Position numbers and translations under genes: made by a program
Notes under the pieces: model-generated
The model's input: only the letters and a program-made list of their open reading frames with translations
Databases searched by the model: none
What the model was told of the DNA's origin: nothing
In this document: piece by piece, positions 8,075-22,730 of the stretch
How positions within the stretch are numbered: position 1 is the first letter of the stretch
How the letters are laid out: each line of letters begins with the position of its first letter
Source: Bacteroidia bacterium
GTDB taxonomy: Bacteria > Bacteroidota > Bacteroidia > NS11-12g > UBA9320
Direction of reading: 5' to 3'
Assembly: GCA_965655315.1 (NCBI GenBank)
Contig: CBFHGJ010000009.1
Span: 26,008-90,007 of the forward strand
DNA length: 64,000 nt

Positions 8075-9152
8075 ATGACTAGTGATCAGTTTAACGACAT
8101 TAAAGGCCGTACAGCTAAGCTGGCGGACTATCTTTGACGTAGAAAAGAATCTTGCTCTCATAGCAGATGAAGAGCAGCAAACGCACGATCCATCCTTCTG
8201 GGATAATCCAAAAAAAGCAGAAATACATCTCAGGAATATCAAGAAAAAGAAAATCTGGACTGATTCTTGGGTTGAAATCAATGCTGGAGTTGAAGACATA
8301 GAAGTGCTTCTTGAATTTAAAGAAATGGGTGAAGATGTGGATGAGGAAATTGAGACCAAGTATCAAGGTACACTTCAGAAGTTAGAGAACTTGGAATTTA
8401 AAAACATGCTTAGCGGAGAAGAGGATCAATTGGATGCAATTCTGGAAATCAATGCTGGAGCTGGAGGTACTGAGAGTAACGATTGGGCAGCTATGCTGAG
8501 CCGAATGTACACGATGTGGGGTCAGAATAATGGATATAAAGTCGAAGTTCTAGAGCAAGTCGATGGAGACGTTACAGGTATTAAGTCTATTTCCTTACAG
8601 TTTTCAGGAGATTTTGCTTTTGGTTATTTAAAAGGAGATAATGGTGTTCATAGATTGGTCAGAATAAGTCCTTTTGACAGCAGTAACAGGAGACATACGT
8701 CTTTCGCGTCAGCTTATATCTACCCTGTGGTAGATGATAGTATCGAGATTGATATTCCTTGGGGAGATATTGATATGCAGACTTCTCGAAGTGGTGGAGC
8801 AGGAGGTCAGAATGTAAATAAGGTGGAGACCAAAGTTCAGTTAACCCATAAACCGACAGGCATCATGGTGGTATGTTCTCAAGCCCGTTCTCAACTGGCT
8901 AACAAGGAAGAAGCCATGAAGATGCTTAAGTCTCAATTGTATGATATTGAGCTTCGTAAACAAACTGATGCTAGGGCCGAAATAGAAAATGGCAAGATGA
9001 AGATAGAGTGGGGAAGTCAAATAAGAAATTACGTTATGCATCCCTATAAATTGGTTAAGGACGTGCGAACAGGAGAGGAGACAAGTAATGTGCAAGCCGT
9101 GATGGATGGAGATTTAGAAGCTTTTCATAAGGCGTACTTGTTAGGACAGTAA
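8075..9152 (+). CDS. prfB: peptide chain release factor 2, with programmed +1 ribosomal frameshift (join 8075..8134, 8136..9152)
   Basis: ATG 8075 gives [20 protein letters not shown] then UGA; canonical shift site CUU UGA C at 8132-8138; +1 frame continues [15 protein letters not shown]... to TAA 9150-9152 and contains RF2 motifs (SPF-like region, GGQ in [16 protein letters not shown]). Confidence 0.95.
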
Positions 9153-9154
9153 AA

Positions 9155-10648
9155 GTGAAAAGATTTGCATTCGGCTTTATAATCCTTTTGTTGTTTGCTA
9201 TTGAATCTTCAGGACAACATCGCATTAAGCTTAATACAGGTACCTCTTTGTTTGTTGAGATAAATGAATTATCCGATGATTCTGTATGTTTTCGTTTTAT
9301 TAGACAAAAAGGATACAACTGCTTCGCCCGAAATGAAGTAGCTTATATTGAAGATCTGGGATTAGATGTCCACTTATTGAGCCAAAACTATAAACTAAGT
9401 AATCCATTCAAGTTTGAAAATCTCACTTTGGAGGATGAAATACAATTTAACTCCTATCTGAGGCACAATAAGTTAAACTATTATATGTTGCAGACTAAAG
9501 TACTAGAGATAGCTGCAGATAGCGTCCGTTTTCTAACTTTCATCGATGGTAAATACATTGAAAAAAAGATATCTAAAGATAGAATACTGTCTATACAGTA
9601 TTCGCAACGTTCTCGAAAATACTTGTTCCCGTCTGATAGCGTTGATTTAGATTTTGAGGATATTGTTTTCTTGCAAAATGGGGATCAACAAAGAATATAT
9701 GTCTATGAAGTAGGCTTCCAGGGAATTAAGTATGCTAAAGAATTATTACCGCACTACAGCACTAAACTTAAAGACGATAACTCAATAAAAACGATGAATC
9801 TTGCTGGATTAGAATTTCTGCATTACAACCAAATCGATAAATTGTATATAGCAAACGGTAGGATAATATTCCCTCCTAAATTAACAAAGAGCAGCAAAAG
9901 GGAAATATCTCGTTACCCTAGGCTTGTTTTGGGAGTAGAATACGGAGTTGGATCAATTAGGCAAGGTCTTATACAGTTCACTCAGATTGAAACTTTTGGG
10001 GGTGAAATTCAGGAAATTAGCCAAATAAGTACCTTGCCCCAAAGCTCTCAGTACTCTTTTGTAGCTGGGCTTCAATTATCTGACAATCAACGGGTAGAGA
10101 TGAAATATTCGAACTGGGACAGTCAAGAAATAGAGTTTAGTGATAACAGGTATTCAAATAACCCCATAGATTTTTCTGATTTCTATCTGACTAAGTATGG
10201 TACAAAAATGCAGTCCATACAGATTTCATATTACCGTGAATTATACAAGGGTATAATAGGTGGCATTGGTGTAAATAGTGTTTTATTTAACAACGATCTA
10301 CAAATCAAGAGAGCAAGGTATACTGGGACAAACTTTCACTCCGGTTTTTATAATTCTGCAGAGGTTTCGAATAAACCTCAACCTGGAATAGGAGCTAGTT
10401 TAGGATATGAATTAGATTTAGGAAGGTTGAACTTAAGATCACAATCTAGCTACAATGTGTATAGAGCAAATTTGAACCAATATTCTAATGAATCGTACCA
10501 ATACGTTTACCTAAATGATCAAGGAAAAAGAGTCTCTACGAATAGTGGAAGAAAAGTCCGCAATGAGATAGAACAGTATCGATTGGCGTTCATTTCAAAA
10601 GAAATAAGCAGACACATTCTGTCTTTCGAAGCAACACTGCTGTATTAG
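9155..10648 (+). CDS. hypothetical secreted protein (probable outer-membrane beta-barrel C-terminal half)
   Basis: 497 aa, signal peptide MKRFAFGFIILLLFAIESSGQ; Tyr/Gly/Ser/Asn-rich C-terminal half typical of barrels; starts 3 nt after prfB stop. Confidence 0.55.
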   Translation: MKRFAFGFIILLLFAIESSGQHRIKLNTGTSLFVEINELSDDSVCFRFIRQKGYNCFARNEVAYIEDLGLDVHLLSQNYKLSNPFKFENLTLEDEIQFNSYLRHNKLNYYMLQTKVLEIAADSVRFLTFIDGKYIEKKISKDRILSIQYSQRSRKYLFPSDSVDLDFEDIVFLQNGDQQRIYVYEVGFQGIKYAKELLPHYSTKLKDDNSIKTMNLAGLEFLHYNQIDKLYIANGRIIFPPKLTKSSKREISRYPRLVLGVEYGVGSIRQGLIQFTQIETFGGEIQEISQISTLPQSSQYSFVAGLQLSDNQRVEMKYSNWDSQEIEFSDNRYSNNPIDFSDFYLTKYGTKMQSIQISYYRELYKGIIGGIGVNSVLFNNDLQIKRARYTGTNFHSGFYNSAEVSNKPQPGIGASLGYELDLGRLNLRSQSSYNVYRANLNQYSNESYQYVYLNDQGKRVSTNSGRKVRNEIEQYRLAFISKEISRHILSFEATLLY

Positions 10649-10661
10649 TAAGTCTAGTTAA

Positions 10662-11657
10662 CTACTTTACAATCTCCATGAGTTGATCTAACTTAGGCGT
10701 TAGGATAATCTCTATACGTCTATTCTGTGCTCTAGCTTCTTTTGTTTTAGCATCATTTATAGGTACGTATTTACTTCTGCCACTAGGTATAATCTTAATT
10801 GGATCCATTTTTCCTTCGGTGGTTAAGTATCTAACGACTGATGTAGCTCGCAGTACACTCAAATCCCAGTTATCTTGAATAGTAGTAGATTTCATTGGAA
10901 CGTCATCAGTATGCCCTTCTACCATAATATCAAAATCTTCGATGTCTTTAAGGCTCTCAGCCACCTTAAGAAGAGCATTTTTACCTTTCCAATCGATATC
11001 TGTTTTACCACTTTGGAACAAAAGGTTATTGTCTAAGGATACATATATCCTACCATCTTTTTCAACTACTGAAATTCCGCTGTTCTTGTAACCAATCAAA
11101 GATTCAGTAAGTTTATTCTTCAAATCACTGACTGCCTTTTCTTGAGCTGCGAGTTTTGATTTCAGTTCATTTACGGTTTTTTCACGTTCACGCAGTGATA
11201 TTTCTAAAGCATCAAGTTCTTTCTTTAGTTTATTAGTCTCATTCTCTTTTTCTATCAGGGTAGACTCTTTAGCAAATAGCTCACGTTTCTTCTCATCTAG
11301 TTTCTTATCTAACCTTTCAAGTTCATATCTCAGATCCTTTTTTGTGTTTTCATTACTGTTTAACAAGTTTTCATAGTTCTCATTCAGAATTTTGTACGAA
11401 CGTTCTACCTTGTCAAATTCAGCTTTTTGATCAGCACATTCCCTTTCTGCTTGTTCGTATTCTGCAGCAAGGTTTTTGTACCTAGTATTTAGATCTTCTA
11501 GTTCGCTATCACTAAATGACTTTAATCTCTCCATTTCTTGGTACTTACTGGCTAGGTCATCGTATTTAACCTGTAAATCTTCAAGTTTTTTTGCTGGTAC
11601 ACAGCCTACTATCACACTGATCAGAAGGACAGTTATGAGTTTATATTCTTTATTCAT
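10662..11657 (-). CDS. OmpA-family lipoprotein with long N-terminal coiled-coil
   Basis: 331 aa; lipoprotein signal (LISVIVGCVPAKK); 150-aa heptad-rich coiled coil; C-terminal OmpA/MotB peptidoglycan-binding domain (…TDDVPM…LSVLRATSVVRYL…NRRIEIIL). Confidence 0.8.
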   Translation of the reverse strand: MNKEYKLITVLLISVIVGCVPAKKLEDLQVKYDDLASKYQEMERLKSFSDSELEDLNTRYKNLAAEYEQAERECADQKAEFDKVERSYKILNENYENLLNSNENTKKDLRYELERLDKKLDEKKRELFAKESTLIEKENETNKLKKELDALEISLREREKTVNELKSKLAAQEKAVSDLKNKLTESLIGYKNSGISVVEKDGRIYVSLDNNLLFQSGKTDIDWKGKNALLKVAESLKDIEDFDIMVEGHTDDVPMKSTTIQDNWDLSVLRATSVVRYLTTEGKMDPIKIIPSGRSKYVPINDAKTKEARAQNRRIEIILTPKLDQLMEIVK

Positions 11658-11734
11658 CTTGATGTTCTATTTCTAATCATCAAAATTACAACTTGGTCTG
11701 ATGCAGAATATTCACATATACACAGCGTGAAGGA

Positions 11735-11756
11735 ATGTCTATTTATTATTAGACAT
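11735..11756. promoter_or_regulatory. palindrome ATGTCTA-N8-TAGACAT between two minus-strand genes (possible operator or terminator stem)
   Basis: Perfect 7-bp inverted repeat read directly from sequence. Confidence 0.3.
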
Positions 11757-11789
11757 GTTGTTGGTTAGTAAGGGTTTAAAAGTGAAGCT

Positions 11790-12314
11790 CTATAGATTTT
11801 TCTTTGTTAGATTCTTAATCGTCTTTGCACCTCTATTTTTAAAGCCAGCACTACCTTCGTGTAACTGAGCAGACAAGCTCTCAATCAATTCAGGAATAAG
11901 GTCAATGTATTTCTTGGCTATTCTTTCACAGACAGTCATGCTAAACACTCTAATTGCTATGGCTTCCTTTGGGTTATTAATTGTTTTTAAGCAATAGTCA
12001 TAGAGTATACCTTCTATTTCCTCAGGAATTGTGGCAGTCTGATAGATTCTTACAATATTTCTTCTTACTGAATTGTGCACAGATGAATCAGCTAATTTTT
12101 CTAATAGTTGATTATGATACGGTTCAATCAGGCTTTGGTGTTTTTCAGCTATATGACCCACTGCCCAACTGGTAAGTTGAGATACTCGCACGTTACCATT
12201 CAGAAAGAGATCCATAAGTTGCTTAAACCGAGCAGAGTCACCATTTATATACTGGATAATATCGTCTATAGAGTTCTTATTTATAGGCAGCTTGCTTATC
12301 CCTTGTAACACCAT
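11790..12314 (-). CDS. hypothetical alpha-helical (HEAT-like) protein, possibly DNA-alkylation-repair-enzyme-like
   Basis: 174 aa, all-helical repeat-like composition; weak resemblance to AlkD-type HEAT repeat proteins; no catalytic motif identified. Confidence 0.4.
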   Translation of the reverse strand: MVLQGISKLPINKNSIDDIIQYINGDSARFKQLMDLFLNGNVRVSQLTSWAVGHIAEKHQSLIEPYHNQLLEKLADSSVHNSVRRNIVRIYQTATIPEEIEGILYDYCLKTINNPKEAIAIRVFSMTVCERIAKKYIDLIPELIESLSAQLHEGSAGFKNRGAKTIKNLTKKNL

Positions 12315-12341
12315 TTAAACGATTAAAAGTAAGTATCTAAG

Positions 12342-13433
12342 CTACTCTTGTTCAACGTCTACAATTAGTTTTTCTTCTAAAGTATGCCTACGAATAGCTA
12401 AATCAATCAGTCTAGAAATCAAATCAGAATAGGGGATTCCTGTTGCTTCCCAGAGCTTGGGGTACATGCTTATATCGGTAAATCCTGGTAATGTGTTGAC
12501 CTCATTTACAAGTATGTCGCCACTCTCGGTAAGAAATACATCTACTCGAGCCATCCCTTCGCATTCAAGCAACTTATATGCGGTAACCGCTACTTTCCTT
12601 ATCCTTTCTTGCTCGTTATCCGTAATCTCTGCAGGTATAACCGTCTTAGATCCAGTAGCATCCTTGTATTTAGCGTCATAACTGTAAAAAGTATGCTGTT
12701 CTCCTATAGTTACTACCTCACCTACAAAAGAAGCCTTTGGGTTCTCATTTCCTAGAACAGCACATTCAATCTCTCGTCCTACAATGTTTTCTTCTATCAG
12801 TATTTTTTTGTCGTATCTAAAAGCTAACTCTATTGCATTATAAAACTCCCTCTTTGTTGTCACTTTGCTTATTCCTACAGACGACCCAAGATTTGGAGGT
12901 TTGATATACATAGGAGTTCCTAAATAGGTCAAAGCTTTCTCATAAGTTATTTGATCTTTTTCGTCATAATGATAACTAAGAAATAAACTACTTGAGATAT
13001 TAGAATCTCGCAATACCTTTTTGGCTATATCTTTATCTATACATAGAGAACTGCCTAATATAGAAGGCCCTACAAATGCTATGCTTAAGCTTTTTAGAAG
13101 TCCCTGAAGGCTACCATCTTCACCGCCTGTACCATGAATGATAGGAAAGATTACATCTATATGAATAGGTTCGAGAGTAGATTTCAAAAGGAATTTATCT
13201 TCTCCGCCACCCGGAAAAATCACTACTTCCGAATCAGCTTTCTCTACGACAGTTTCTTGTGAAAAATCCTTTTGTGATTTTAAGTGCCATCCTCCTTGTT
13301 TATCTACTCCAAGTAAAACAACCTCAAAACGAGTTTTATCAATAGCTTGAGCAATATTTCTGGCAGAACGAATGGATACTTCATGCTCGGTAGACCGACC
13401 TCCATATACTATTGCTATTTTTTGTCTATTCAT
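12342..13433 (-). CDS. ddl: D-alanine--D-alanine ligase
   Basis: 363 aa; N-terminus KIAIVYGGRSTEHEVSIRSARNIAQAI and ATP-grasp body typical of Ddl. Confidence 0.9.
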   Translation of the reverse strand: MNRQKIAIVYGGRSTEHEVSIRSARNIAQAIDKTRFEVVLLGVDKQGGWHLKSQKDFSQETVVEKADSEVVIFPGGGEDKFLLKSTLEPIHIDVIFPIIHGTGGEDGSLQGLLKSLSIAFVGPSILGSSLCIDKDIAKKVLRDSNISSSLFLSYHYDEKDQITYEKALTYLGTPMYIKPPNLGSSVGISKVTTKREFYNAIELAFRYDKKILIEENIVGREIECAVLGNENPKASFVGEVVTIGEQHTFYSYDAKYKDATGSKTVIPAEITDNEQERIRKVAVTAYKLLECEGMARVDVFLTESGDILVNEVNTLPGFTDISMYPKLWEATGIPYSDLISRLIDLAIRRHTLEEKLIVDVEQE

Positions 13434-13467
13434 TCTTTTACTATTTTTAAAACGCCTTCGTATTCAG

Positions 13468-14529
13468 TTACTTAAACCTATTGTAAAACGCTGATGTATC
13501 TGACCCGTAGAGCCAATTTAATACATTTCTTTCCCAAATCTCTTGATGTTGTTGTTCATTTATAAGCTTTTGCTCTAGAGCCAGATCGAGTAGCTTTCCT
13601 GGATAACTACTTTGTGCATCACTTTCCATTTCGCCAAGAGGATACGGGTCATCAAGTCCCATCAAAATTTGATCGGTGCTTCCTTGCCTTTTGAGCATAA
13701 CCTCAAAGGATATTGTGTCATGGACTAAAGTGTCGAAGTATATATTGGGGTGACCTACAGCTTTCCTTGGTCGTGTTTTTCCTTCAAAAAGGTCAGGTCT
13801 ACCATCAAAACCCTGAACCCGCCTGCCAATGTTTATGTGATTAAGCTGTCCACCGTGAGCAAAACAAGTCCTTATATTAGGATATTTCTCATAGTATCCA
13901 TTTAAGGTGTAGAAATGATAAGAGTCTGCACATTGGGCAAGCATCCATATCAAATGAAATCTCCAAGCTGTGTTTTCTAGTTTAATAAATTTTTCGCCAT
14001 CGTACGGATGGACTTCTATTGCCAAGTTGTACTTATTGGCTAATTCTAGAATAGGCTCCGTATCAGCGTTGAAGATGCCTTTCCAGTTACCAGCGGTGTC
14101 AAGATAGTGAGTAGGTAAACAAAGCACCTTAAGGCCTAGCTTTTCTACACATCTCTCTATCTCCCAAAGAGCTCCGTCTACAAATCCCGCATGAACTACA
14201 AATCCAGTTGTAAATTTTTGATTGTAAGTTGCTTGCACCTCTGCATTAAAGTCATTTTGAAATCGAAGAGCTTGCTTCATATCACTATGAGTTAAGCCAT
14301 TTCCATAGAGCTGAGATAGGTTTAAGACTACGGCATGGTCGATATTGTTTTGACTCATCCATTCCAACTTTTCATTTAGAAAAAAGCTTTCTGCTGTAAT
14401 TGGTCTTTGCCAATTTTTTTGACGCATAAACTTACGATCACTATCTATCCAAAAGATCTCCTTGTCTTTCATAAACTTTGGAATCTGCTCTGGATATGGG
14501 AGTAAGTGTGAATGTCCGTTAATTTTCAT
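13468..14529 (-). CDS. amidohydrolase-2 family metal-dependent hydrolase (ACMSD/TIM-barrel type)
   Basis: 353 aa; MKINGHSHLLP... N-terminal His pair and ...HPYDGE.., FAHGGQ motifs consistent with amidohydrolase_2. Confidence 0.6.
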   Translation of the reverse strand: MKINGHSHLLPYPEQIPKFMKDKEIFWIDSDRKFMRQKNWQRPITAESFFLNEKLEWMSQNNIDHAVVLNLSQLYGNGLTHSDMKQALRFQNDFNAEVQATYNQKFTTGFVVHAGFVDGALWEIERCVEKLGLKVLCLPTHYLDTAGNWKGIFNADTEPILELANKYNLAIEVHPYDGEKFIKLENTAWRFHLIWMLAQCADSYHFYTLNGYYEKYPNIRTCFAHGGQLNHINIGRRVQGFDGRPDLFEGKTRPRKAVGHPNIYFDTLVHDTISFEVMLKRQGSTDQILMGLDDPYPLGEMESDAQSSYPGKLLDLALEQKLINEQQHQEIWERNVLNWLYGSDTSAFYNRFK

Positions 14530-14891
14530 GCTAGTCGTCTATTTAAACGAAAATACAACAGAGTAGTGCATCGAATTTGCGATGTACTTAAAATGTGGGT
14601 TAATCAGGCCTTACTGACTGAAATATCTTTGAGTAGCTTTCTTCCCTTCTTTATACAGGAGTTCTTGTTCTTCTTGAGATAGACTAAAATTAGTGATGGC
14701 AATGCCTTTACTATTAATTATTACCGTAGTTTTTTCCTTTTCTTCTGATTTAAAAAAGTCTACGTCTAGGGAGAAGTGTTGGCTACTAATCAGTTTGGAG
14801 ACATTATGTCGGCAATTGATGGCAACATATTTATGCCCTTATATCAGAAGCAAGGTATGGATGGATTCTTCATTATCAAACCAGTGGAACC

Positions 14892-16001
14892 TTAAGCCAT
14901 CTGCTTTCTTCTTTCTGTTTCTTTTGCCATGACATTGGAGATAGACTTAAATTCCTGGCGAATAATGGTCCATCGTTCCGGATACTTCTCTAAAAGATCA
15001 AATACCTTCTTTGATTGCCTGTTTAATGCATCTGTAATGCTGGCATTAGAAACCGCTGGTATACAGTGACTTCCGATATGTTTACCTATCACAGATAATC
15101 CTTTATCGTGAACTAACTTGGCTGCAGTTTCGTAACGGTCAAGCAGCTTGTAGGTTTTAGCAAGTCTACCAAGTGTTAGACTTTCGTCTTTTGCATTGAT
15201 TCTGCGTTGCTTTTTTAACTCTAGGTTGTTCAAGTGGGCAGGAGAGAGGAATATCTCCGTTTCCCCACTAGATAAAGCTAAATTAAGCTCTACTTGCATG
15301 TGCCTTTCTAGATTATTCTCTAGACTTTCAAAGGATCCTTGGTGGTTTTTTAATGCTGAAATAAAAGCAGGAGTTAGGCGAATCGATATTGAATACTTTT
15401 TTTCTAACTTGTTCACAATCAGTTGTATGAACTGTGTGATAGCTATCTCGTAGTTTCTTCCCTGTTTTTGAAGTAGGGCTCGGTTTTGTTCTAATTCATT
15501 CTCAGCGTTAACCTTCGTCTTGGCTATAGATGATATAATAGCTCTGTCTTCTTGTGTGAGTTGGACTAGTTTATTGACGACACCTCGTATATTTATTTCA
15601 AACTGTTTCTTTTGGTCAGCTAGGAGATAGGTGTTTTTGTTTGGACCGAAAGGTCGCAGCTGTACAAGTAAGTGCATAGATCCGGCGTCAGTTGCAATGT
15701 TTTTAACAAAAAGATAGTCTTTCTTAAGCTCCATCTCTAGTGAAGTCTGACCAATTGCCTTACCAGAATCGAATGGAGTATCACTTATAGCATACCATCC
15801 ATTATTTCCCTTCTCTATAAAATGAGCTAGTGTTTTAGGGTATTTCTCCTCGTATTCCCCATTGTTTATCTGTATTTGTATAGCTCCGTTATTGTATTGG
15901 AGTATGCCATACACAGATTGAGAATAGGGTATAGCTTCCTTGATGAAATTTACTGCTAGCTGTTGTATCGGTATGTTGCTGCTTAATAACAAGCTACACA
16001 A
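14892..16001 (-). CDS. hypothetical protein (putative sensor/regulator-like: N-terminal alpha/beta domain, central coiled coil, C-terminal helix-turn-helix-like segment)
   Basis: 369-aa ORF ending TAA; no recognisable catalytic motif; divergent from 16178-16588 across an AT-rich repeat-bearing region; the domain guess is inference only. Confidence 0.45.
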   Translation of the reverse strand: MCSLLLSSNIPIQQLAVNFIKEAIPYSQSVYGILQYNNGAIQIQINNGEYEEKYPKTLAHFIEKGNNGWYAISDTPFDSGKAIGQTSLEMELKKDYLFVKNIATDAGSMHLLVQLRPFGPNKNTYLLADQKKQFEINIRGVVNKLVQLTQEDRAIISSIAKTKVNAENELEQNRALLQKQGRNYEIAITQFIQLIVNKLEKKYSISIRLTPAFISALKNHQGSFESLENNLERHMQVELNLALSSGETEIFLSPAHLNNLELKKQRRINAKDESLTLGRLAKTYKLLDRYETAAKLVHDKGLSVIGKHIGSHCIPAVSNASITDALNRQSKKVFDLLEKYPERWTIIRQEFKSISNVMAKETERRKQMA

Positions 16002-16019
16002 AAATACATTATTAAGTAA

Positions 16020-16085
16020 TAAGTTAAGTTATATTAAGTTATATGCTTAGCTTAATTTAAGTTAAATAAAGATATATTAAGCCTC
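16020..16085. promoter_or_regulatory. AT-rich divergent intergenic region with three direct repeats of TTAAGTTA(W)AT
   Basis: aagTTAAGTTATAttaagTTAAGTTATATgcttagcttaattTAAGTTAAATaaag read directly; lies between divergent orphan genes. Confidence 0.35.
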
Positions 16086-16177
16086 CCAAATAATACTTAA
16101 TTAACTTTATTTCAATTGTTTATGGTAATAATATTGCCAAAGAATTAATCGTTAATAAAGCAAAATAATTAAGTATT

Positions 16178-16588
16178 ATGGTAAGTGTAAGAAATGTAGA
16201 GGCGTACTTAATGTACGAGGTAGTAGTGTTAGTAGAAGTATTGATAGACCGGGTTTTGGGTCGAATGAAAAATCCATATCAATTGGAGCAACAATGGGAT
16301 CAGGTAAAAAGAGCGTTCCATCTTTTTATGTTAGATCTAGAAGCTGATGATTTCAAACAGATGTATTTGTTCAAGGACTTGAAGCTACCCAGTGAACGTA
16401 AGACAAAAAGAGCAAAACCATCTAATAAAAAGTCTAAGGCTAAAAGACCTAAAGTAGGAAAGCAGCTTCAGTTGTTTTTTGGAAAGATAGTAGCTGTTTC
16501 TAGTTTAATAATTATAGAGATGAAAAAGGGTAGCACTGAGTTTTCTTTTAGATTTAATAAGAAGACTGGTGACTGGATACGAGTTTAA
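16178..16588 (+). CDS. hypothetical lysine/arginine-rich small protein
   Basis: 136-aa ORF (GTG/ATG start ambiguity; possible start at MKNPYQLE), basic tract KRAKPSNKKSKAKRPKVGK; followed directly by a bidirectional terminator, supporting a real transcript. Confidence 0.4.
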   Translation: MVSVRNVEAYLMYEVVVLVEVLIDRVLGRMKNPYQLEQQWDQVKRAFHLFMLDLEADDFKQMYLFKDLKLPSERKTKRAKPSNKKSKAKRPKVGKQLQLFFGKIVAVSSLIIIEMKKGSTEFSFRFNKKTGDWIRV

Positions 16589-16590
16589 CT

Positions 16591-16627
16591 AAAAAATCCC
16601 TCCCGCAATACGGGAAGGATTCCTTTT
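16591..16627. terminator. bidirectional rho-independent terminator (A-run / hairpin TCCCTCCCG-caata-CGGGAAGGA / T-run)
   Basis: Hairpin flanked by A6 upstream and T-run downstream; sits between + strand ORF and 3' end of the minus-strand tRNA. Confidence 0.75.
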
Positions 16628-16628
16628 G

Positions 16629-16702
16629 TGACCTCGTCAGGATTCAAACCTGAGACCTCTTGAGCCGTAATCAAGTGCTCTATTCAGCTGAGCTACGAGG
16701 CC
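16629..16702 (-). tRNA. tRNA-Arg (anticodon ACG)
   Basis: Reverse complement GGCCTCGTAGCTCAGCTGAATAGAGCACTTGATTACGGCTCAAGAGGTCTCAGGTTTGAATCCTGACGAGGTCA folds as cloverleaf; anticodon stem CTTGA/TCAAG, loop TTACGGC. Confidence 0.9.
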
Positions 16703-16778
16703 AGTTACCCTTTCGGGGCTGCAAATATAGTATCCTGTATTATTCTACAAGACAAAAAATTATATTCGTGGCTTCATT

Positions 16779-17669
16779 TTGAAACTATTAAAATTTGCTT
16801 CTATCGACGTAGGCTCAAATGCCGTTAGGTTACTGTTTACCAACGTATTTGAAACACCTAAAGGTCCAGTTTTTAGAAAGCTTTCTCTAGTACGTGTACC
16901 TATACGATTAGGGGAGGATGCGTTCATTCACGGGCGTATTAGTGAAGAAAAAACAGATCAGTTGGTAAGGACCATGCGTTCCTTCAAACACCTAATGAAC
17001 GTGCATCAGGTATTGGACTACAAAGCTTATGCTACTAGTGCTATGAGGGAAGCTACTAATGCAAAGTATATCATTTCCGAAATTAAGCATTATGCTGATT
17101 TAGATTTACAAATAGTGAGTGGGGATAAAGAGGCGGATACAATATCTCTAGAAAATCTACCTGATTATATTCCTCGGTTTGAAGATGTAGTGTTTGTAGA
17201 CGTAGGGGGTGGGAGTACAGAGCTGACTTATCTAAAAGGAAGTAATAAAGCAGCTGCTAAATCGTTGAAAATAGGCACGATACGTCTACTGCATAATACG
17301 GTTGACGATTTACTCTGGGAAGAAATGAAATCTTGGTTTAAAGAGTTGAATATATCAGGTAAAAAAATACCGATCATTGGTACAGGAGGAAATATCAATA
17401 AAATGCTAAAAATGCTTCGAAAGGAGCAAGAGGACTATTTCATATCTTCTTCTGATTTGTCTACCTTAAAAGAGGAACTAAAGTCGGTAGACTATGAAGA
17501 AAGGATAGCCAGATATGTACTTAATCCTGATCGTGCGGATGTGATAGTTCCAGCCGCTCATATATTTGAAACGGTAGCATCTTACCTAGGAAGTGAACGC
17601 ATCTATATTCCTAAAATAGGATTGTCAGACGGTATTGCTAGATCATTATACAAGAAGTATGGGAGGTAG
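16779..17669 (+). CDS. ppx: Ppx/GppA-family exopolyphosphatase / guanosine pentaphosphate phosphohydrolase
   Basis: 296 aa; N-terminal ASIDVGSNAVRLL (actin-like ATPase fold phosphate-1 motif) and Ppx/GppA-type layout. Confidence 0.8.
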   Translation: MKLLKFASIDVGSNAVRLLFTNVFETPKGPVFRKLSLVRVPIRLGEDAFIHGRISEEKTDQLVRTMRSFKHLMNVHQVLDYKAYATSAMREATNAKYIISEIKHYADLDLQIVSGDKEADTISLENLPDYIPRFEDVVFVDVGGGSTELTYLKGSNKAAAKSLKIGTIRLLHNTVDDLLWEEMKSWFKELNISGKKIPIIGTGGNINKMLKMLRKEQEDYFISSSDLSTLKEELKSVDYEERIARYVLNPDRADVIVPAAHIFETVASYLGSERIYIPKIGLSDGIARSLYKKYGR

Positions 17670-17694
17670 GATTTAGCGTTTAATTGCTATTTGT

Positions 17695-20600
17695 TTACTC
17701 TTCTTCTAGTTCGATTTTTTCTTCTGGATTTTCGATTTTCTTGATTGTCTCAATCTTCTCTCTACAGATATCTAGTAGGCCATCTTCCTCATTTTCATAG
17801 TTGTCAAGTATACTTTTTAAGGTAGCTTTCGCTTGGAAGTAATCTTCTTCTTTTACGTAAACATCGCTTAGTAGTATGAATCCTTTTACTACCCAAAAGT
17901 CATAAGCACTAAAATCTGCACTTAAATCAAAAACATTAGTTCTTGCCTTTTCTAGGTCATTCTGCTGATAGTAGATATAGGCTCTTTGATACAGGGCTTC
18001 AGCGGTCATAGCATTTTGACTTTCTTCTATGACATAATCAAAATGAAACTTAGCTGTTCGGAAGTTTTCATCTTTGAGTTGAATACGTCCGAGTGTCATA
18101 TTTGCTTCTACTAGATCATCTTTAGGCACATCTTCGATTGGAAGTAGCTGTATGGCCTTTTTCTTGGCTAGATCATAGTTCTCAAGTTCATAATGGCATC
18201 TCATCTGCCCCATAATAGAGCTGATAAAAGTACTTTTAGAAGCAGCTATTGGCTCTAACTTAGCATAATACCCTACAGCCTTCTGATATCCCTTTCTGTA
18301 GTAATAGGTAGAAGTTAGTTTGATAAGTGATTTCTCAGTGTACTCGTTTCTGCTCTGAGATACCACATAATCATAGTGTTTAAGGGCTTCGTCTTCTCTA
18401 TCTGTATAATAGTCAGCTTCGGCTTTGAAGTAGTGGGCCTGGATGATAAAGTATCCTTGATCTCCAAATCGTTTGATGTAATTACCTAGCTCTTTTGATG
18501 CTCCTGTATAATCCTTGTTATTATATACACTCATAGCGTGGTTATATATCACACTATCTTGTGCAGATAAACTTACTTCAGCTCCAGGTATATTTTTCAC
18601 GTAATCGAAATAACCTTGAGGATCTCCTTGATTGTTATAGATGATCTCAATGAAAGTGAGAGCTTCTTTTGAAGATATCGTTTTAGGAAAACGCTCTACA
18701 ACGGTTTTAAAGTATCCTAACGCAGCGTCATCTTTACTTTGATTATAGTTAATGAGTCCTAGTTTCAAGTAGGCTTGAGGTAGGTAAGGAGAATAGTCAT
18801 GTTGAGATATAATGACATTGAATATACTCTTTGCAGTACTGTAATTACCTAGAATAGTGTACTCATTTGCAATCTCGAATAAGGCATCGTCCAAGTATAT
18901 ACTTTTCTTAAAGTCATTCTGAATTTTCTTCAAGGCATTGATTTTTTCTGAGTGACGTTCTTGTAAACCGTAAAGCATGCCTTGTTGGTAAAGTGCATAA
19001 TCTGCTGATTTATAGTTGTTTTTAATGTAAAAATCATATTCAGATATAGCAGGAGAGTACTGACCGTTCAAAAAGTAGCAGTCCGCAAGTCGAATGGTAT
19101 TATCGAGATATATGGATTTATTTACCTCAGAATAAGTCTCATTTTGTTTGAATTTCGCAAAATAATTCTGTGCCTTAGGATAATCTTTCTTCTTCAGATA
19201 GTTATAACCCGTACTGTAGTAGCCGTAGGTCTTATTTTTACTTCTATCCCCTTTGTTATTACTCATAAATCGGTTCATCAGTTTCAAGCTTTCGTCGTAA
19301 TCGTTCACTTTGTACGCTATTTCAGCTTGCCAGAAGTAAGCTAAAGCCGCTAACTCTTCATCCTTTGGGTATTTTAGAGATTTTTGAAAGAAAATATTTG
19401 CGGTTTGCAGTTCATTATTGAGATACAATTCTTCACCTCTGTGAAAGGTTAATTCCTGATAGGCTTTTTTTGAATCGTTGTTTAAATCTCCAATATCTTC
19501 CAGTACTGCGATGGCTGCCTTGTAGTTTTTTGTACTCAAAAAGATATCTGCCATCATCGATTTAGCCTCGTTTGAGTATTTTGAGTTTGGGTATTGCTCT
19601 AGGAACTGCTTTATTGCTGTTACAGCAGTAGAGTTCTTACCCAGTTCAGTAGCTAACTTAGCATAGTTATATGCAGCTATTTCTGTGATTTCTTTATCGT
19701 AATTCTTACGTTTTGCTTCGGCGAATGCATTTAATGCACGATTTTTCTTTTCTATTTTTACATCAGACACCCCTAAGTGATAGTTCGCTGCTTGTCCCAT
19801 TTCACTATCCTCATTGGCTATCAAAATGAAGAATTGTGTAGATTTTTCAAACTTGTCTGCTGCATAATTAGCGTGAGCTATTTGATAGATTTCGTCAGGT
19901 TGTAGCTCTTTTACATCTTGTTGATACTTATCAAAATGACTAAGTGCCACACTTAGGTTGCCTAGCTGATACTGAATCTTGCCTGTAAGTAGAGCAATCT
20001 CATTTTCTCGTTTCCTTATTCTAATATCTTTTACTATCCCAAAGGCCTTTTCATACTCTTCTTTTTCATAGTACATCTGAGCGAGGTACAATTGCATGGT
20101 CTTTGGACCTTTATTTCCTATTTTTTCGAATGTAGCAATCGCACAGCTATATTCTTTTAATACATAGCATTGGTATCCGTAGTAGTAATTTGCCTCTACA
20201 GCATATTTACCATCCCCGTTCATTATTTTTCTGAATTCGTTTCGGGCGGATTCGTAATTTTTATTCTTGAAATAACTGTATCCTTTCTTAAATGCTAATT
20301 CTTCTCTTTGTGCCTTGGAAACATCTGTTTCTTCGATTTTTTCAAGGTATTTTAATACTCGTGAGTATTTCTGATCATTAAAATAGTGCAGACCAAGCTC
20401 ATAGGTTATTTCAGTATTTAGTTTATGCTCAGGTTCTGAACGTAGAAATTTTGCAAGATCTCTAGTTGCTCCTTGCTTATCTAGTTTGAGCCGAGCTAAT
20501 TTAGTATAGGCTTGAGCTTCATAAGTAAAGTTAGGTCCTGGGTTGGTAGCTAAGAATTTACTAAACTCTTGTATAGATGGAACATACTGTTGTTTTATGT

Positions 20601-20727
20601 ATAGTCTTTTTGCGTGCTCAAATAGAGGAGAGGATTCAGTATATTCTTTCGTCTTCTGAGCATTGGTGATTAAAGCAGTACAGCTGAAAAGCAGTGTAAG
20701 AAGGAGTATAGAATGTAATCTATTCAT
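17695..20727 (-). CDS. large tetratricopeptide-repeat (TPR) protein, secreted
   Basis: 1010 aa; signal peptide MNRLHSILLLTLLFSCTALITNAQ; many 34-residue TPR-like units (W/Y-LG-Y-A-F-P patterns) throughout. Confidence 0.75.
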   Translation of the reverse strand: MNRLHSILLLTLLFSCTALITNAQKTKEYTESSPLFEHAKRLYIKQQYVPSIQEFSKFLATNPGPNFTYEAQAYTKLARLKLDKQGATRDLAKFLRSEPEHKLNTEITYELGLHYFNDQKYSRVLKYLEKIEETDVSKAQREELAFKKGYSYFKNKNYESARNEFRKIMNGDGKYAVEANYYYGYQCYVLKEYSCAIATFEKIGNKGPKTMQLYLAQMYYEKEEYEKAFGIVKDIRIRKRENEIALLTGKIQYQLGNLSVALSHFDKYQQDVKELQPDEIYQIAHANYAADKFEKSTQFFILIANEDSEMGQAANYHLGVSDVKIEKKNRALNAFAEAKRKNYDKEITEIAAYNYAKLATELGKNSTAVTAIKQFLEQYPNSKYSNEAKSMMADIFLSTKNYKAAIAVLEDIGDLNNDSKKAYQELTFHRGEELYLNNELQTANIFFQKSLKYPKDEELAALAYFWQAEIAYKVNDYDESLKLMNRFMSNNKGDRSKNKTYGYYSTGYNYLKKKDYPKAQNYFAKFKQNETYSEVNKSIYLDNTIRLADCYFLNGQYSPAISEYDFYIKNNYKSADYALYQQGMLYGLQERHSEKINALKKIQNDFKKSIYLDDALFEIANEYTILGNYSTAKSIFNVIISQHDYSPYLPQAYLKLGLINYNQSKDDAALGYFKTVVERFPKTISSKEALTFIEIIYNNQGDPQGYFDYVKNIPGAEVSLSAQDSVIYNHAMSVYNNKDYTGASKELGNYIKRFGDQGYFIIQAHYFKAEADYYTDREDEALKHYDYVVSQSRNEYTEKSLIKLTSTYYYRKGYQKAVGYYAKLEPIAASKSTFISSIMGQMRCHYELENYDLAKKKAIQLLPIEDVPKDDLVEANMTLGRIQLKDENFRTAKFHFDYVIEESQNAMTAEALYQRAYIYYQQNDLEKARTNVFDLSADFSAYDFWVVKGFILLSDVYVKEEDYFQAKATLKSILDNYENEEDGLLDICREKIETIKKIENPEEKIELEEE

Positions 20728-20915
20728 TAGTCTGTGCGAATTCGCTTCAAAATAACTCTGAAAAGGTGGGATAAAGTATTCTAATTGCCCACAATCTATT
20801 AAGGAATTACTGCGTACATGATCAAAAAAAATCCTTTCAATTTTATTTTAATTGAACAGGGTAATACTATATTCGCACCCGCTTTTGAAGCACAGAGCAT
20901 TTGTTCTGATTTTAT

Positions 20916-20990
20916 GGTGGTTGTAGCTCAGTTGGTTAGAGCACCGGTTTGTGGTACCGGGGGTCGTGGGTTCGAGCCCCATCTTCCACC
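20916..20990 (+). tRNA. tRNA-His (anticodon GTG) with G-1
   Basis: gGTGGTTGTAGCTCAGTTGGTTAGAGCACCGGTTTGTGGTACCGGGGGTCGTGGGTTCGAGCCCCATCTTCCACC: anticodon loop TTGTGGT, extra 5' G pairing with discriminator C; note two T:T mismatches in the acceptor stem. Confidence 0.8.
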
Positions 20991-20993
20991 CAG

Positions 20994-21027
20994 AAAAGTC
21001 CGACTATTTCAGTCGGACTTTTTTTAT
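20994..21027 (+). terminator. rho-independent terminator after tRNA-His
   Basis: AAAGTCCGACT atttc AGTCGGACTTTTTTTAT. Confidence 0.85.
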
Positions 21028-21093
21028 TGATCATTTTTAGATCATCTCAAGTCAATTACTTATGGGCTATCATTTTTGTTAAATTTGCATCAA

Positions 21094-21548
21094 TGAAAAA
21101 TATAGTAATTCTCTCCATTATCTTTTTTGCGGTAGCTTGTAATTCAAGCGACAAGTCTCAAGAAACTGCTTCTGAATCTGAAGAAGTGATTGAAGCAGTA
21201 GAGGAAAATGCATCTACAAACGGCGTATCTTTTAATGGTTTGGAAGATGGTTCTACACTTTCTTCTCCGTTCTTATTAGAAATGGGAGTAGAAGGTATGA
21301 TAGTAAAGCCCAAAGGTGCACCAAGAGAAGGTTATGGTCATCATCATTTACTCATCAATGATGATTATGCTCCTGCAGGTACGGTAATTGTGGCGGATGA
21401 TACTCACATCCATTATGGAGGTGGACAAACATCTGATTCAATAGCTCTAGAGCCAGGGGAGTACAAGTTGACTTTACAGTTTGCTGATGGTATGCACGTA
21501 TCCTACGGTGAACAATGGGCTAAATCTATTAACGTTACCGTAGAGTAG
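21094..21548 (+). CDS. hypothetical lipoprotein (DUF4399-like, His-rich GYGHHHL motif)
   Basis: ATG 21094 gives MKNIVILSIIFFAVACNSSD lipoprotein signal; the longer listed ORFs (20818.., 20949..) run through the tRNA and are not credible. Confidence 0.6.
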
Positions 21549-21559
21549 ATTTTTGTCGT

Positions 21560-22618
21560 TTGTTTCCTTGGAGTAATCTAATGCTTGCAGGCGTGCGTAA
21601 AGCTGCATTTGCTCTTTGTTTCAGTTTACTCCTTCTTACTAAATTTGGTTTTGGTCAGAATACTAATTTCAAATCAAACATCCTTCTTTCTCAGGTATTT
21701 TCAGATTACAATGCTGTCCTATTAGACGGTGATCCTACACCATTTGATAGTAGTCTATCATTGACAAACAGATTAAGTTATCAAAGGAGTTACAATAATA
21801 GATGGGAAGGATATGCTGGGTTATCCAATGGTTTTAGACAGTATTACACGATTGAAAATGAAGACTATAATAAGGTGTACTCATTTGCAGTAGATGCTGG
21901 AATAAAATATGTGCTATTTGCTCAACCAAACAACAGATAGCTAAGGAGGTTTTCACCATTTTTATCTGCAGGCTACTACTTAGAATACTTACGCGGATTA
22001 AGAGAAACAGAAAACCAGCTGTATTTATCAAATGGCCAATATGGTTTGGGGTTTGTTTCAGAATTTTCTCCAAGGTTGGGATTGCAAAGCAGCGTAATAA
22101 TTACTCAGAAACTACAAGATGATTTTAATACATTCTTACAATACAGAGCTGGGCTCTATTTCAAAGTAGGTAAATCTCAAAGCACACCCATCGAAAATAT
22201 TGAGGAGATTGATAATCCAGTTGTTGAAGGAGTAATTGAACCTGAATATTTAGTCAACTTAAGAGATAGTATTGATCAGGTATCTCAATGATTTGACTCC
22301 TTAAACAGCTCTAATTTGACCAAGATAAAGAGGTTAGAGCAATTGAATAAAGTGCTGAAAGATTCGTTGTCTAGTAACGAAAAGCAATCGATTCAGAGAT
22401 ACTTTGTCGTCGTCTTTTCTTCCAAAAGCTTGGAATCCATCAATACATTTGAAAAACGAATCGCAAAAAAGAATTACAAAACCGTAGTCTTGGAAAATCA
22501 AGCTGCTGGAAATTATAGATTAGCCATCCCTGCTTGCGATGACTATAGCAAAGCGGCAGTCGTATTGAATCAGGTTAGAGATTTAGTCACTGCTATTGCG
22601 TGGTTACTTTATCAGTGA
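21560..22618 (+). pseudogene. single reading frame (~352 codons) interrupted by two in-frame stops: signal-peptide protein with C-terminal SPOR-like domain
   Basis: ORFs 21560-21940, 22046-22291 and 22316-22618 are all in the same frame; the intervening stretches are open; the only interruptions are TAG 21938-21940 and TGA 22289-22291; C-terminal part resembles SPOR (…YFVVVFSSKSLESINTFEKRIAKKNYKTVVLENQAAGNYRLAI…). Confidence 0.55.
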
Positions 22619-22730
22619 CATTTCTGCTCAAATAAGCTTTTTTCGGTCTTTAAGCATTAGGTTTTTATCGATATCATGTGGAATTGTAGGTAGATAATGC
22701 TCTATTTGCAGAAAATAAATTTATCACTTA

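Follow-up and report, generated by a model that had tools for sequence, protein, structure and literature searches.

A conserved divergent gene pair of uncultured Bacteroidota with a phased array of RCTTAAT boxes: probably an autoregulated sensor-regulator and its small basic partner

Gene organization of the locus

The DNA analyzed here is a stretch of 64,000 nucleotides, referred to as the window, from contig CBFHGJ010000009.1 (positions 26,008 to 90,007, forward strand) of the genome of a Bacteroidia bacterium (GenBank assembly GCA_965655315.1; NS11-12g, UBA9320). It harbours two divergently transcribed genes, one encoding a protein of 366 amino acids (aa), here called the large protein, and the other a basic protein of 136 aa, here called the small protein. 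The two genes are separated by a short intergenic region, the spacer, and the small gene is followed by a gene for tRNA-Arg(ACG), the 3' ends of both facing each other (Table 1). An initial annotation, made from the letters of the sequence, had described the two open reading frames (ORFs), a Lys/Arg tract (KRAKPSNKKSKAKRPKVGK) in the small protein and three direct repeats in a very AT-rich spacer. All of these were found to be present. The tract covers aa 77-95 of the small protein, the spacer is 80% AT and the repeat TTAAGTTA is located at 16024, 16034 and 16057.

The ORF of 369 aa originally described for the large protein exists, but its TTG codon at 16001 falls within the predicted -7 box of the promoter of this gene, and the homologues start three codons downstream. 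The large gene therefore most likely encodes 366 aa. In 18 loci compared (see below) the start codon at this position is GTG in 15 and TTG, as in the window, in 3. The spacer, 176 bp when measured from the longer ORF, becomes 185 bp after this correction. The hairpin between the small gene and the tRNA gene had been regarded as a strong bidirectional terminator shared with tRNA-Arg. It folds on both strands indeed (-13.5 and -22.2 kcal/mol for the + and the - strand, respectively), but its T-run is strong and clean on the - strand only, for which alone a terminator was called by a pattern scan. A terminator that is bidirectional but asymmetric is plausible. Apart from the tRNA, nothing was found by Rfam in positions 14000-17500.

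Table 1 Features of the gene pair, its spacer and its flank (window coordinates; domain positions of the large protein in 369-aa numbering)
Feature	Position	Strand	Basis or remark
Large-protein ORF, 369 aa	14892-16001	-	ORF listing
Large-protein gene, corrected, 366 aa (most likely)	14892..15992	-	TTG start 15992-15990; homologues begin (M/V)LLSSNIP at that codon
N-terminal GAF-like alpha/beta sensor-type domain, aa ~10-125 (predicted)	15627..15974	-	model; conserved motif GWY..ETPF....IGQTSLEMELDRD
Single 76-residue helix, aa 128-203 (predicted)	15393..15620	-	secondary structure of model
Small beta-alpha-alpha-beta middle domain, aa 206-257 (predicted)	15231..15386	-	model
C-terminal all-helical domain, aa 278-368, six helices (predicted)	14898..15170	-	model; predicted helix-turn-helix region
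Possible extra box in codons 2-4 of large gene (TTA TTA AGC)	15981..15987		suggestive only
Predicted Bacteroidetes sigma-A -7 box TATTTTTG of large gene (consensus TAnnTTTG)	15999..16006	-	predicted start ~15994, 2-nt leader
RCTTAAT boxes, + strand coordinates	16011-16017, 16023-16029, 16033-16039, 16056-16062, 16076-16082, 16168-16174		array 16011..16174
RCTTAAT boxes, opposite orientation	16050-16056, 16095-16101		array 16011..16174
Palindrome CTTAATTTAAG within array	16051-16061
Putative -7 box TAATATTG of small gene	16129..16136	+	predicted start ~16141; conserved block in spacer alignment
Small basic protein gene, 136 aa	16178..16588	+	ORF listing, relatives, synonymous-only codon differences
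K/R-rich low-complexity tract of small protein	16397-16462	+
QLQLFF of small protein	16463-16480	+	followed by hydrophobic/amphipathic C-terminal helix
Hairpin terminator between small gene and tRNA-Arg(ACG)	~16595-16621	both strands	folding, pattern scan
tRNA-Arg(ACG), 3' end facing 3' end of small gene	16628-16702	-	ARAGORN, Rfam

Conservation and inheritance of the pair

A scan of 185,579 species-representative genomes revealed 22 loci of the large-protein family. Using a hidden Markov model of the small protein, a divergent homologue was found directly upstream of the large gene in all 21 loci with upstream DNA, at large-protein identities down to 35%. Six far more distant family members also have a divergent ORF directly upstream, encoding 62-233 aa without a Pfam match and in several cases with a basic tract; the genomic contexts of these six differ, and include the Rnf operon, mnmA and FKBP genes. 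Conservation of the pair across such differing contexts indicates that it is a self-contained, vertically inherited module. In two relatives, L001 (2.4-Mb contig, 48% identity) and L002 (382-kb contig, 51% identity), the same divergent pair is located beside ddl, an OmpA-like gene and prfB. The corresponding neighbourhood in the window is prfB-ompA-ddl-amidohydrolase, of which the amidohydrolase gene is also shared with L001.

In the initial annotation the pair had been taken for a small islet, either mobile or with a role in anti-phage defence, that entered the genome at the tRNA-Arg(ACG) 3' end. In favour of this, the small gene is directly adjacent to that end of the tRNA gene, with the hairpin common to both, and both proteins are orphans. 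However, the pair was present in all related loci with upstream DNA and is syntenic regardless of the tRNA: ppx is located between the pair and tRNA-Arg in L001, where the arrangement is inverted, and no tRNA occurs at the locus in L002. The large-protein family moreover comprises 407 clusters at 50% identity, and the same array of boxes (see below) was found in the spacer of every locus examined. The GC content of the module is that of its flanks and of the rest of the window (0.36-0.38 across 12-20 kb). A search for an attachment site, that is, a direct repeat of the tRNA 3' end, yielded no tRNA-derived repeat of at least 10 nt within ~7.5 kb on either side (9000-24000, both strands). There is no integrase or recombinase gene in the neighbourhood, and neither protein matched an entry of PADLOC or PHROGs. 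Likeness to tRNA-linked islets and defence islands is thus limited to the adjacency to the tRNA 3' end in the window genome, while integrase, attachment repeat, compositional shift and defence match are all lacking and the pair is syntenic across the lineage. The islet explanation, which we rate as very improbable, is largely refuted; the pair is not a mobile or defence islet. Of the conserved core genes with housekeeping domains that the initial annotation had named as the other possibility, the pair has the conservation and the synteny; known housekeeping domains were found in neither protein. An origin of replication was also considered for the locus and rejected, since no inflection in GC skew is present there.

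A further family member (L025, 27% identity), with a box array upstream, was encountered on a 2.1-kb contig (JABMOA010000091.1) in a metagenome-assembled genome (MAG) assigned to 'Candidatus Woesearchaeota archaeon'. This is most likely a mis-binned contig of Bacteroidota and not an archaeal occurrence.

The large protein

Neither the large nor the small protein showed a match above threshold in Pfam, NCBIfam, PADLOC or PHROGs, in agreement with the initial annotation, in which no family had been recognised for either. In PADLOC-DB, 0 families matched up to E=1 for both proteins. The large protein is represented by 36 clusters at 90% identity in a set of 5.8 billion proteins, nearly all of 366 aa and derived from MAGs and single-cell genomes of Bacteroidia. 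A profile search returned 407 representatives at 50% identity (372 with E<1e-10), most of which are ~365-390 aa long and match over most of the profile. Few of them are named, as 'hypothetical protein' of Bacteroidota MAGs, including Crocinitomix sp. Pfam gave no match above threshold in 29 aligned (close) members and 10 distant members, and the Pfam models GAF, GAF_2 and GAF_3 did not match the window protein or any of the 29 members up to E=10. Three profiles (entire large protein, C-terminal half of the large protein, small protein) were run against the sequences of solved structures, with chance-level matches as the only result.

An AlphaFold2 model of the large protein, built on the alignment of the 29 sequences, has a mean predicted local distance difference test score (pLDDT) of 82.8. 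In the model an N-terminal alpha/beta domain, a single long helix and a small middle domain are followed by a disordered linker and an all-helical C-terminal domain (Table 1). The fold of the N-terminal domain is GAF-like in the model, and helix-turn-helix (HTH)-like matches were obtained for the C-terminus. The 76-residue helix is presumed to form a coiled-coil stalk for dimerisation or oligomerisation. Judged from the model, the large protein probably combines a sensor-type domain with a DNA-binding domain, and it belongs to no defined family.

Within the family, conservation is by far the highest in the C-terminal domain (LGRYAKTYKLLDRYE ... IGK.IG..C.P.VSNASITDALNK ... YP..W.IIR.EF.S..N). 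Residues G278, R279, T283, R289-Y290-E291, C313, P315, N319-A320 and I322-T323-D324-A325-L326 are invariant even at 25-28% overall identity. In members with this degree of overall identity, little or no variation is seen in VSNASITDAL either, the putative recognition segment, and its invariance parallels that of the DNA box in the spacer.

In all 29 aligned members, the loop that immediately precedes the putative recognition helix has an invariant Cys-x-Pro (G..C.P.VSNASITDAL); this Cys313 (15063-15065) could be a redox-sensitive or a structural residue. The large protein was also considered as a degenerate sigma-54 enhancer-binding protein of the NifA/NtrC/FleQ type. This candidate was rejected: the Sigma54_activat (AAA+) domain of Pfam was not found, aa 128-203 form one helix in the model, and the matches to enhancer-binding proteins disappeared when the C-terminal half was searched alone.

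The RCTTAAT box array and the promoters

Three of only six copies of TTAAGTTA in the whole window fall in the spacer. Counted as CTTAA/TTAAG cores, 8-9 are present in the spacer, whereas 1.3-1.4 would be expected when this spacer is simulated with a first-order Markov model (a count of 8 was reached in 0 of 5000 simulations). It is the densest cluster of such cores in the window, and the only place in it where CTTAA pairs of the same orientation occur 9-12 bp apart. The spacers between the two start codons were then taken from 18 non-redundant loci and aligned with MAFFT. They measure 185-202 bp and each contains 5-11 cores, compared to 1.1-1.5 expected. In the alignment the cores appear as invariant columns at fixed positions, with (A/G)CTTAAT(T) as the consensus of the box. 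Counted from the transcription start predicted for the large gene, the boxes of the window are centred at -20, -32, -42, -59, -65, -85, -104 and -177. Across the loci the centres are found at about -21, -33, -43, (-51), -60 (inverted), -66, -76, -86 and -105 (inverted), positions that agree between species within ~2 nt. One or two more boxes are present near the small gene, one of which is fixed 3 nt ahead of its ATG. Neighbours of the same orientation are predominantly spaced by 10 bp (n = 23) or 12 bp (n = 14), so that neighbouring boxes lie roughly one helical turn apart.

This property of the spacer extends to the distant part of the family. In 26 of 26 independent loci for which upstream DNA was available, the six distant ones included, the spacer 5' of the large gene is the 200-bp window with the densest cores (5-11, compared to a background of 0.4-1.2). 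The suggestion in the initial annotation that the repeats are operators agrees with this, and with the conservation of their positions across 18 species. Conserved sites at its own or its target promoter are what is looked for in an HTH regulator, and the RCTTAAT boxes are such sites; the large protein may be the protein that binds them. An extra box may be present within the large gene itself: its codons 2-4, Leu-Leu-Ser, read TTATTAAGY in 12 of the 18 loci, the Ser codon being AGY in all 18. As the loci are phylogenetically dependent, this is suggestive only.

All 18 spacers end in TAnnTT(T/C)G, which is located 4-12 nt ahead of the GTG or TTG with which the large gene is predicted to start. 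The TA, the TT and the final G are invariant, and the full TAnnTTTG is present in 14 of the 18. In Bacteroidetes (flavobacteria) TAnnTTTG is the sigma-A -7 box, spanning -12 to -5 (PMC9723704). From the short distance between this box and the start codon a near-leaderless GTG/TTG mRNA is predicted, with 5' leaders of 0-8 nt across the loci. Leaderless mRNAs make up ~5.5% in Flavobacterium psychrophilum (PMC9723704). At -33 the promoter of the large gene has a box and no TTTG. For the small gene a -7-like block was found, conserved as GCAATATTATTA / GCAAAAATATA, while L009 carries TATTTTTG on the small-gene strand. Counting from the predicted start at ~16141, the box at 16168-16174 would be located in a 5' untranslated region (5'UTR) of ~37 nt. 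The box at 16095-16101 would be found at -43, and it is oriented relative to its promoter as the -43 box of the large gene is to its own. Both promoters are putative, having been assigned by their resemblance to the consensus.

Boxes elsewhere were also inspected. Clusters at 10.9 kb and 25.3 kb of the window are situated inside coding sequence and form no phased array; they were judged to be chance occurrences. A perfect 12-bp palindrome (ATTAAGCTTAAT) at 9224-9235, in the signal-peptide region of a 497-aa ORF, has the same pair of boxes that occurs inside the arrays of some relatives, and is probably a chance match. A literature search on the palindrome and the motif returned nothing relevant. 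A metagenome search with the pattern CTTAATN{3,5}ACTTAATN{4,6}ACTTAAT showed no family member among the 80 matches listed, the pattern being too unspecific and swamped by AT-rich tandem repeats. Among the matches listed were metagenome contigs (L047, L066, L068, L069, L086, L100 and L105) with long tandem arrays of 11-12 bp period, whose unit contains ACTTAAT; no family member was found with them.

The small protein

Many codon differences between the small genes of relatives are synonymous only (36 synonymous versus 26 amino-acid-changing codon differences between L011 and L008), which indicates that the gene is truly protein-coding. A single-sequence search identified 8 relatives of the small protein and a profile search 24, all without names. 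The small protein evolves much faster than the large protein. Conserved in it are an N-terminal helical region (V.NVE.Y..YE, AFH.FMLD) and, following this, (D/E)(F/Y)..KDL.LPSE. Most homologues in addition have a C-terminal (D/E)(F/Y)EN(R/K), which the window copy lacks.

Next to the basic tract, 14 of 18 orthologues share the motif QL.L[FLM][FLM] (e.g. QLQLFF, QLSLFF, QLPLFF and QLKLFM). It is replaced by YKRLVI or KDKII in L006, L009, L013 and L017, with the hydrophobic periodicity kept, and distant homologues retain only ..[LS]F[FK]. Since one clade swaps the motif yet keeps the hydrophobic pattern, it may simply be the beginning of an amphipathic helix. The consensus for binding to the bacterial sliding clamp is QL[SD]LF. 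A motif similar to that of clamp-binding proteins of this class, QLxLFF, comes after a basic disordered tract in the small protein; it differs in being absent from one clade and in that it could lie within a helix. Clamp binding by QLxLFF is a low-probability lead, based on this resemblance.

A model for the module and alternative explanations

The explanation that we favour, and consider reasonably probable, is that the pair is an autoregulated one-component regulator controlling a small basic protein, a vertically inherited module of uncultured Bacteroidota. The GAF-like N-terminal domain of the large protein would sense a small molecule or a partner, the 76-residue helix would make the protein dimeric or oligomeric and the HTH-like C-terminus would bind the heptamer RCTTAAT. 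The conserved positions of the boxes, mainly 10 or 12 bp apart, suggest that several regulator molecules coat one face of the DNA in the divergent promoter region with its 8-11 boxes. Binding of such a sensor-controlled, oligomeric HTH protein to the phased array would govern both divergent promoters. The boxes at -21 and -33 overlap the core promoter of the large gene, which points to autoregulation, most likely autorepression. A role in activation is conceivable for the -43 box of each promoter, and one in repression for those boxes that are located in the 5'UTR of the small gene; together, the -43 box and the 5'UTR boxes suggest that the small gene is under control of the same regulator. 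The small protein, the only cis-linked candidate for an output of the module, may be this output, as a nucleic-acid- or protein-binding effector, or a modulator or feedback partner of the regulator.

Several points weigh against an autoregulated regulator of this kind. Another factor could bind the RCTTAAT boxes, their link to the large protein being one that we infer, and the positions of promoters and transcription starts are those predicted by a consensus. Non-AUG starts on near-leaderless mRNAs would be unusual. No regulon member beyond the pair was found in a search that covered the 64 kb plus short flanks. Finally, the small protein is fast-evolving and one clade is without QLxLFF, so that its function is unconstrained by the data.

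Other roles for the small protein and for the array were weighed as well. The small protein may bind to the regulator, for instance at its GAF-like domain, as an antagonist or co-factor, and thereby close a feedback loop rather than act as an independent effector. Strict co-occurrence of the two genes across the family agrees with such a role, as do the absence of another visible target in the 64 kb and the rapid evolution with short kept motifs (LPSE, FMLD) that is typical of modulators. The basic tract points instead to affinity for nucleic acids or membranes, and we give this possibility a modest chance. It is compatible with the favoured explanation, of which it is a refinement. It is improbable that the module is functionally centred on the small protein, with the latter acting as an interactor of the beta sliding clamp (DnaN) via QLxLFF (peptide KVGKQLQLFFGK) and its dosage set by the sensor-regulator so that a signal would be passed on to replication or repair. 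The motif, in most orthologues, resembles the clamp-binding consensus and is preceded by a K/R tract of low complexity, a setting in which short linear motifs are often found. However, it is missing in the four loci named above and reduced in the distant homologues, it may be the start of an amphipathic helix, and neither a GC-skew switch nor a replication gene is located nearby.

The array might also be a structural DNA element (centromere-like, iteron-like or nucleoid-organising) coated by a large coiled-coil protein. Helically phased repeats of such a kind are found in parC and iteron arrays, and the 8-11 phased repeats over ~170 bp, the presence of one array per locus and the 76-residue helix of the large protein are consistent with this. 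Nevertheless, the boxes keep a fixed distance to the -7 box and the start codon at both promoters, as is typical of operators, and the promoter geometry is fixed while the genomic context varies. No partner of the ParA/ParM type or replication initiator is encoded nearby, and the skew has no inflection. A structural element is for these reasons quite improbable. A more elaborate version of the favoured explanation, in which a GAF-like/coiled-coil/HTH regulator polymerises on the array of 8-11 RCTTAAT boxes and is expressed from a near-leaderless GTG/TTG mRNA, while QLxLFF of the small protein docks on the sliding clamp, is improbable as a whole.

Relation to known systems and significance

The module resembles one-component sensor-HTH regulators of the GAF/IclR/LuxR/CodY type in the predicted N-terminal GAF-like sensor fold and C-terminal helical domain of DNA-binding appearance, with putative operator repeats over its own promoter and a divergent, presumed target gene. 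It differs from them in several respects. The large protein is not part of any Pfam or NCBIfam family and has a 76-residue helix plus an extra small domain between sensor and HTH. The putative operator consists of 8-11 phased heptamers instead of one or two palindromes, and for the large gene a GTG/TTG start codon almost at the 5' end of the mRNA is predicted. The long helix, the position-conserved array, the near-leaderless GTG/TTG start and the obligatory small basic partner are the unusual properties of the module. Its mode of action would be that of one-component regulators of the sensor-HTH kind that control their own expression through an operator. It is an orphan, well delimited and amenable to experiments, and not a categorically new system.

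Regulation in Bacteroidota is poorly charted, especially in the abundant uncultured lineages of marine and freshwater environments. The locus provides a package of cis and trans components for a family without a database model, namely a candidate regulator, its probable element RCTTAAT, an operator geometry with respect to promoters of the Bacteroidetes type and a co-inherited, presumed target gene, and could seed the definition of a new family. The spacer fragment of 185 bp offers a clean test system in vitro. The large gene would furthermore illustrate how translation is naturally initiated at a non-AUG codon of a near-leaderless mRNA, in bacteria whose phylum does not use Shine-Dalgarno sequences. 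The analysis also corrects the tempting but wrong call of a tRNA-linked defence islet. If the version with clamp docking were true, it would constitute a new way in which replication or repair is coupled to signals from the environment or from metabolism; to our knowledge, such control is essentially unknown in Bacteroidota.

Neighbouring sequences

The block of tRNA-Arg(ACG) and ppx is inverted between the window (16628-17669) and L001 (4252-5374), and the tRNA adjoins the small gene in the former and not in the latter. This difference is a local inversion next to the module. Two further ORFs were treated as spurious, with no evidence for a gene: one of 79 aa at 14693-14932 (+), most of which falls in the interval that separates the large gene from the amidohydrolase gene, with an overlap into the 3' end of the former, and one of 85 aa at 15196-15453 (+), antisense inside the large gene. 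The interval itself (14530-14891, 362 bp) holds gene remnants. The translation of 14614-14766(-) shares 55% identity with the C-terminal 51 aa of a patatin-like gene at the same position in L001, and 14768-14876 shows 78% DNA identity to the 3' end of an AstE/AspA-like gene that adjoins the large gene in L002. These similarities suggest gene decay or streamlining in the window genome.

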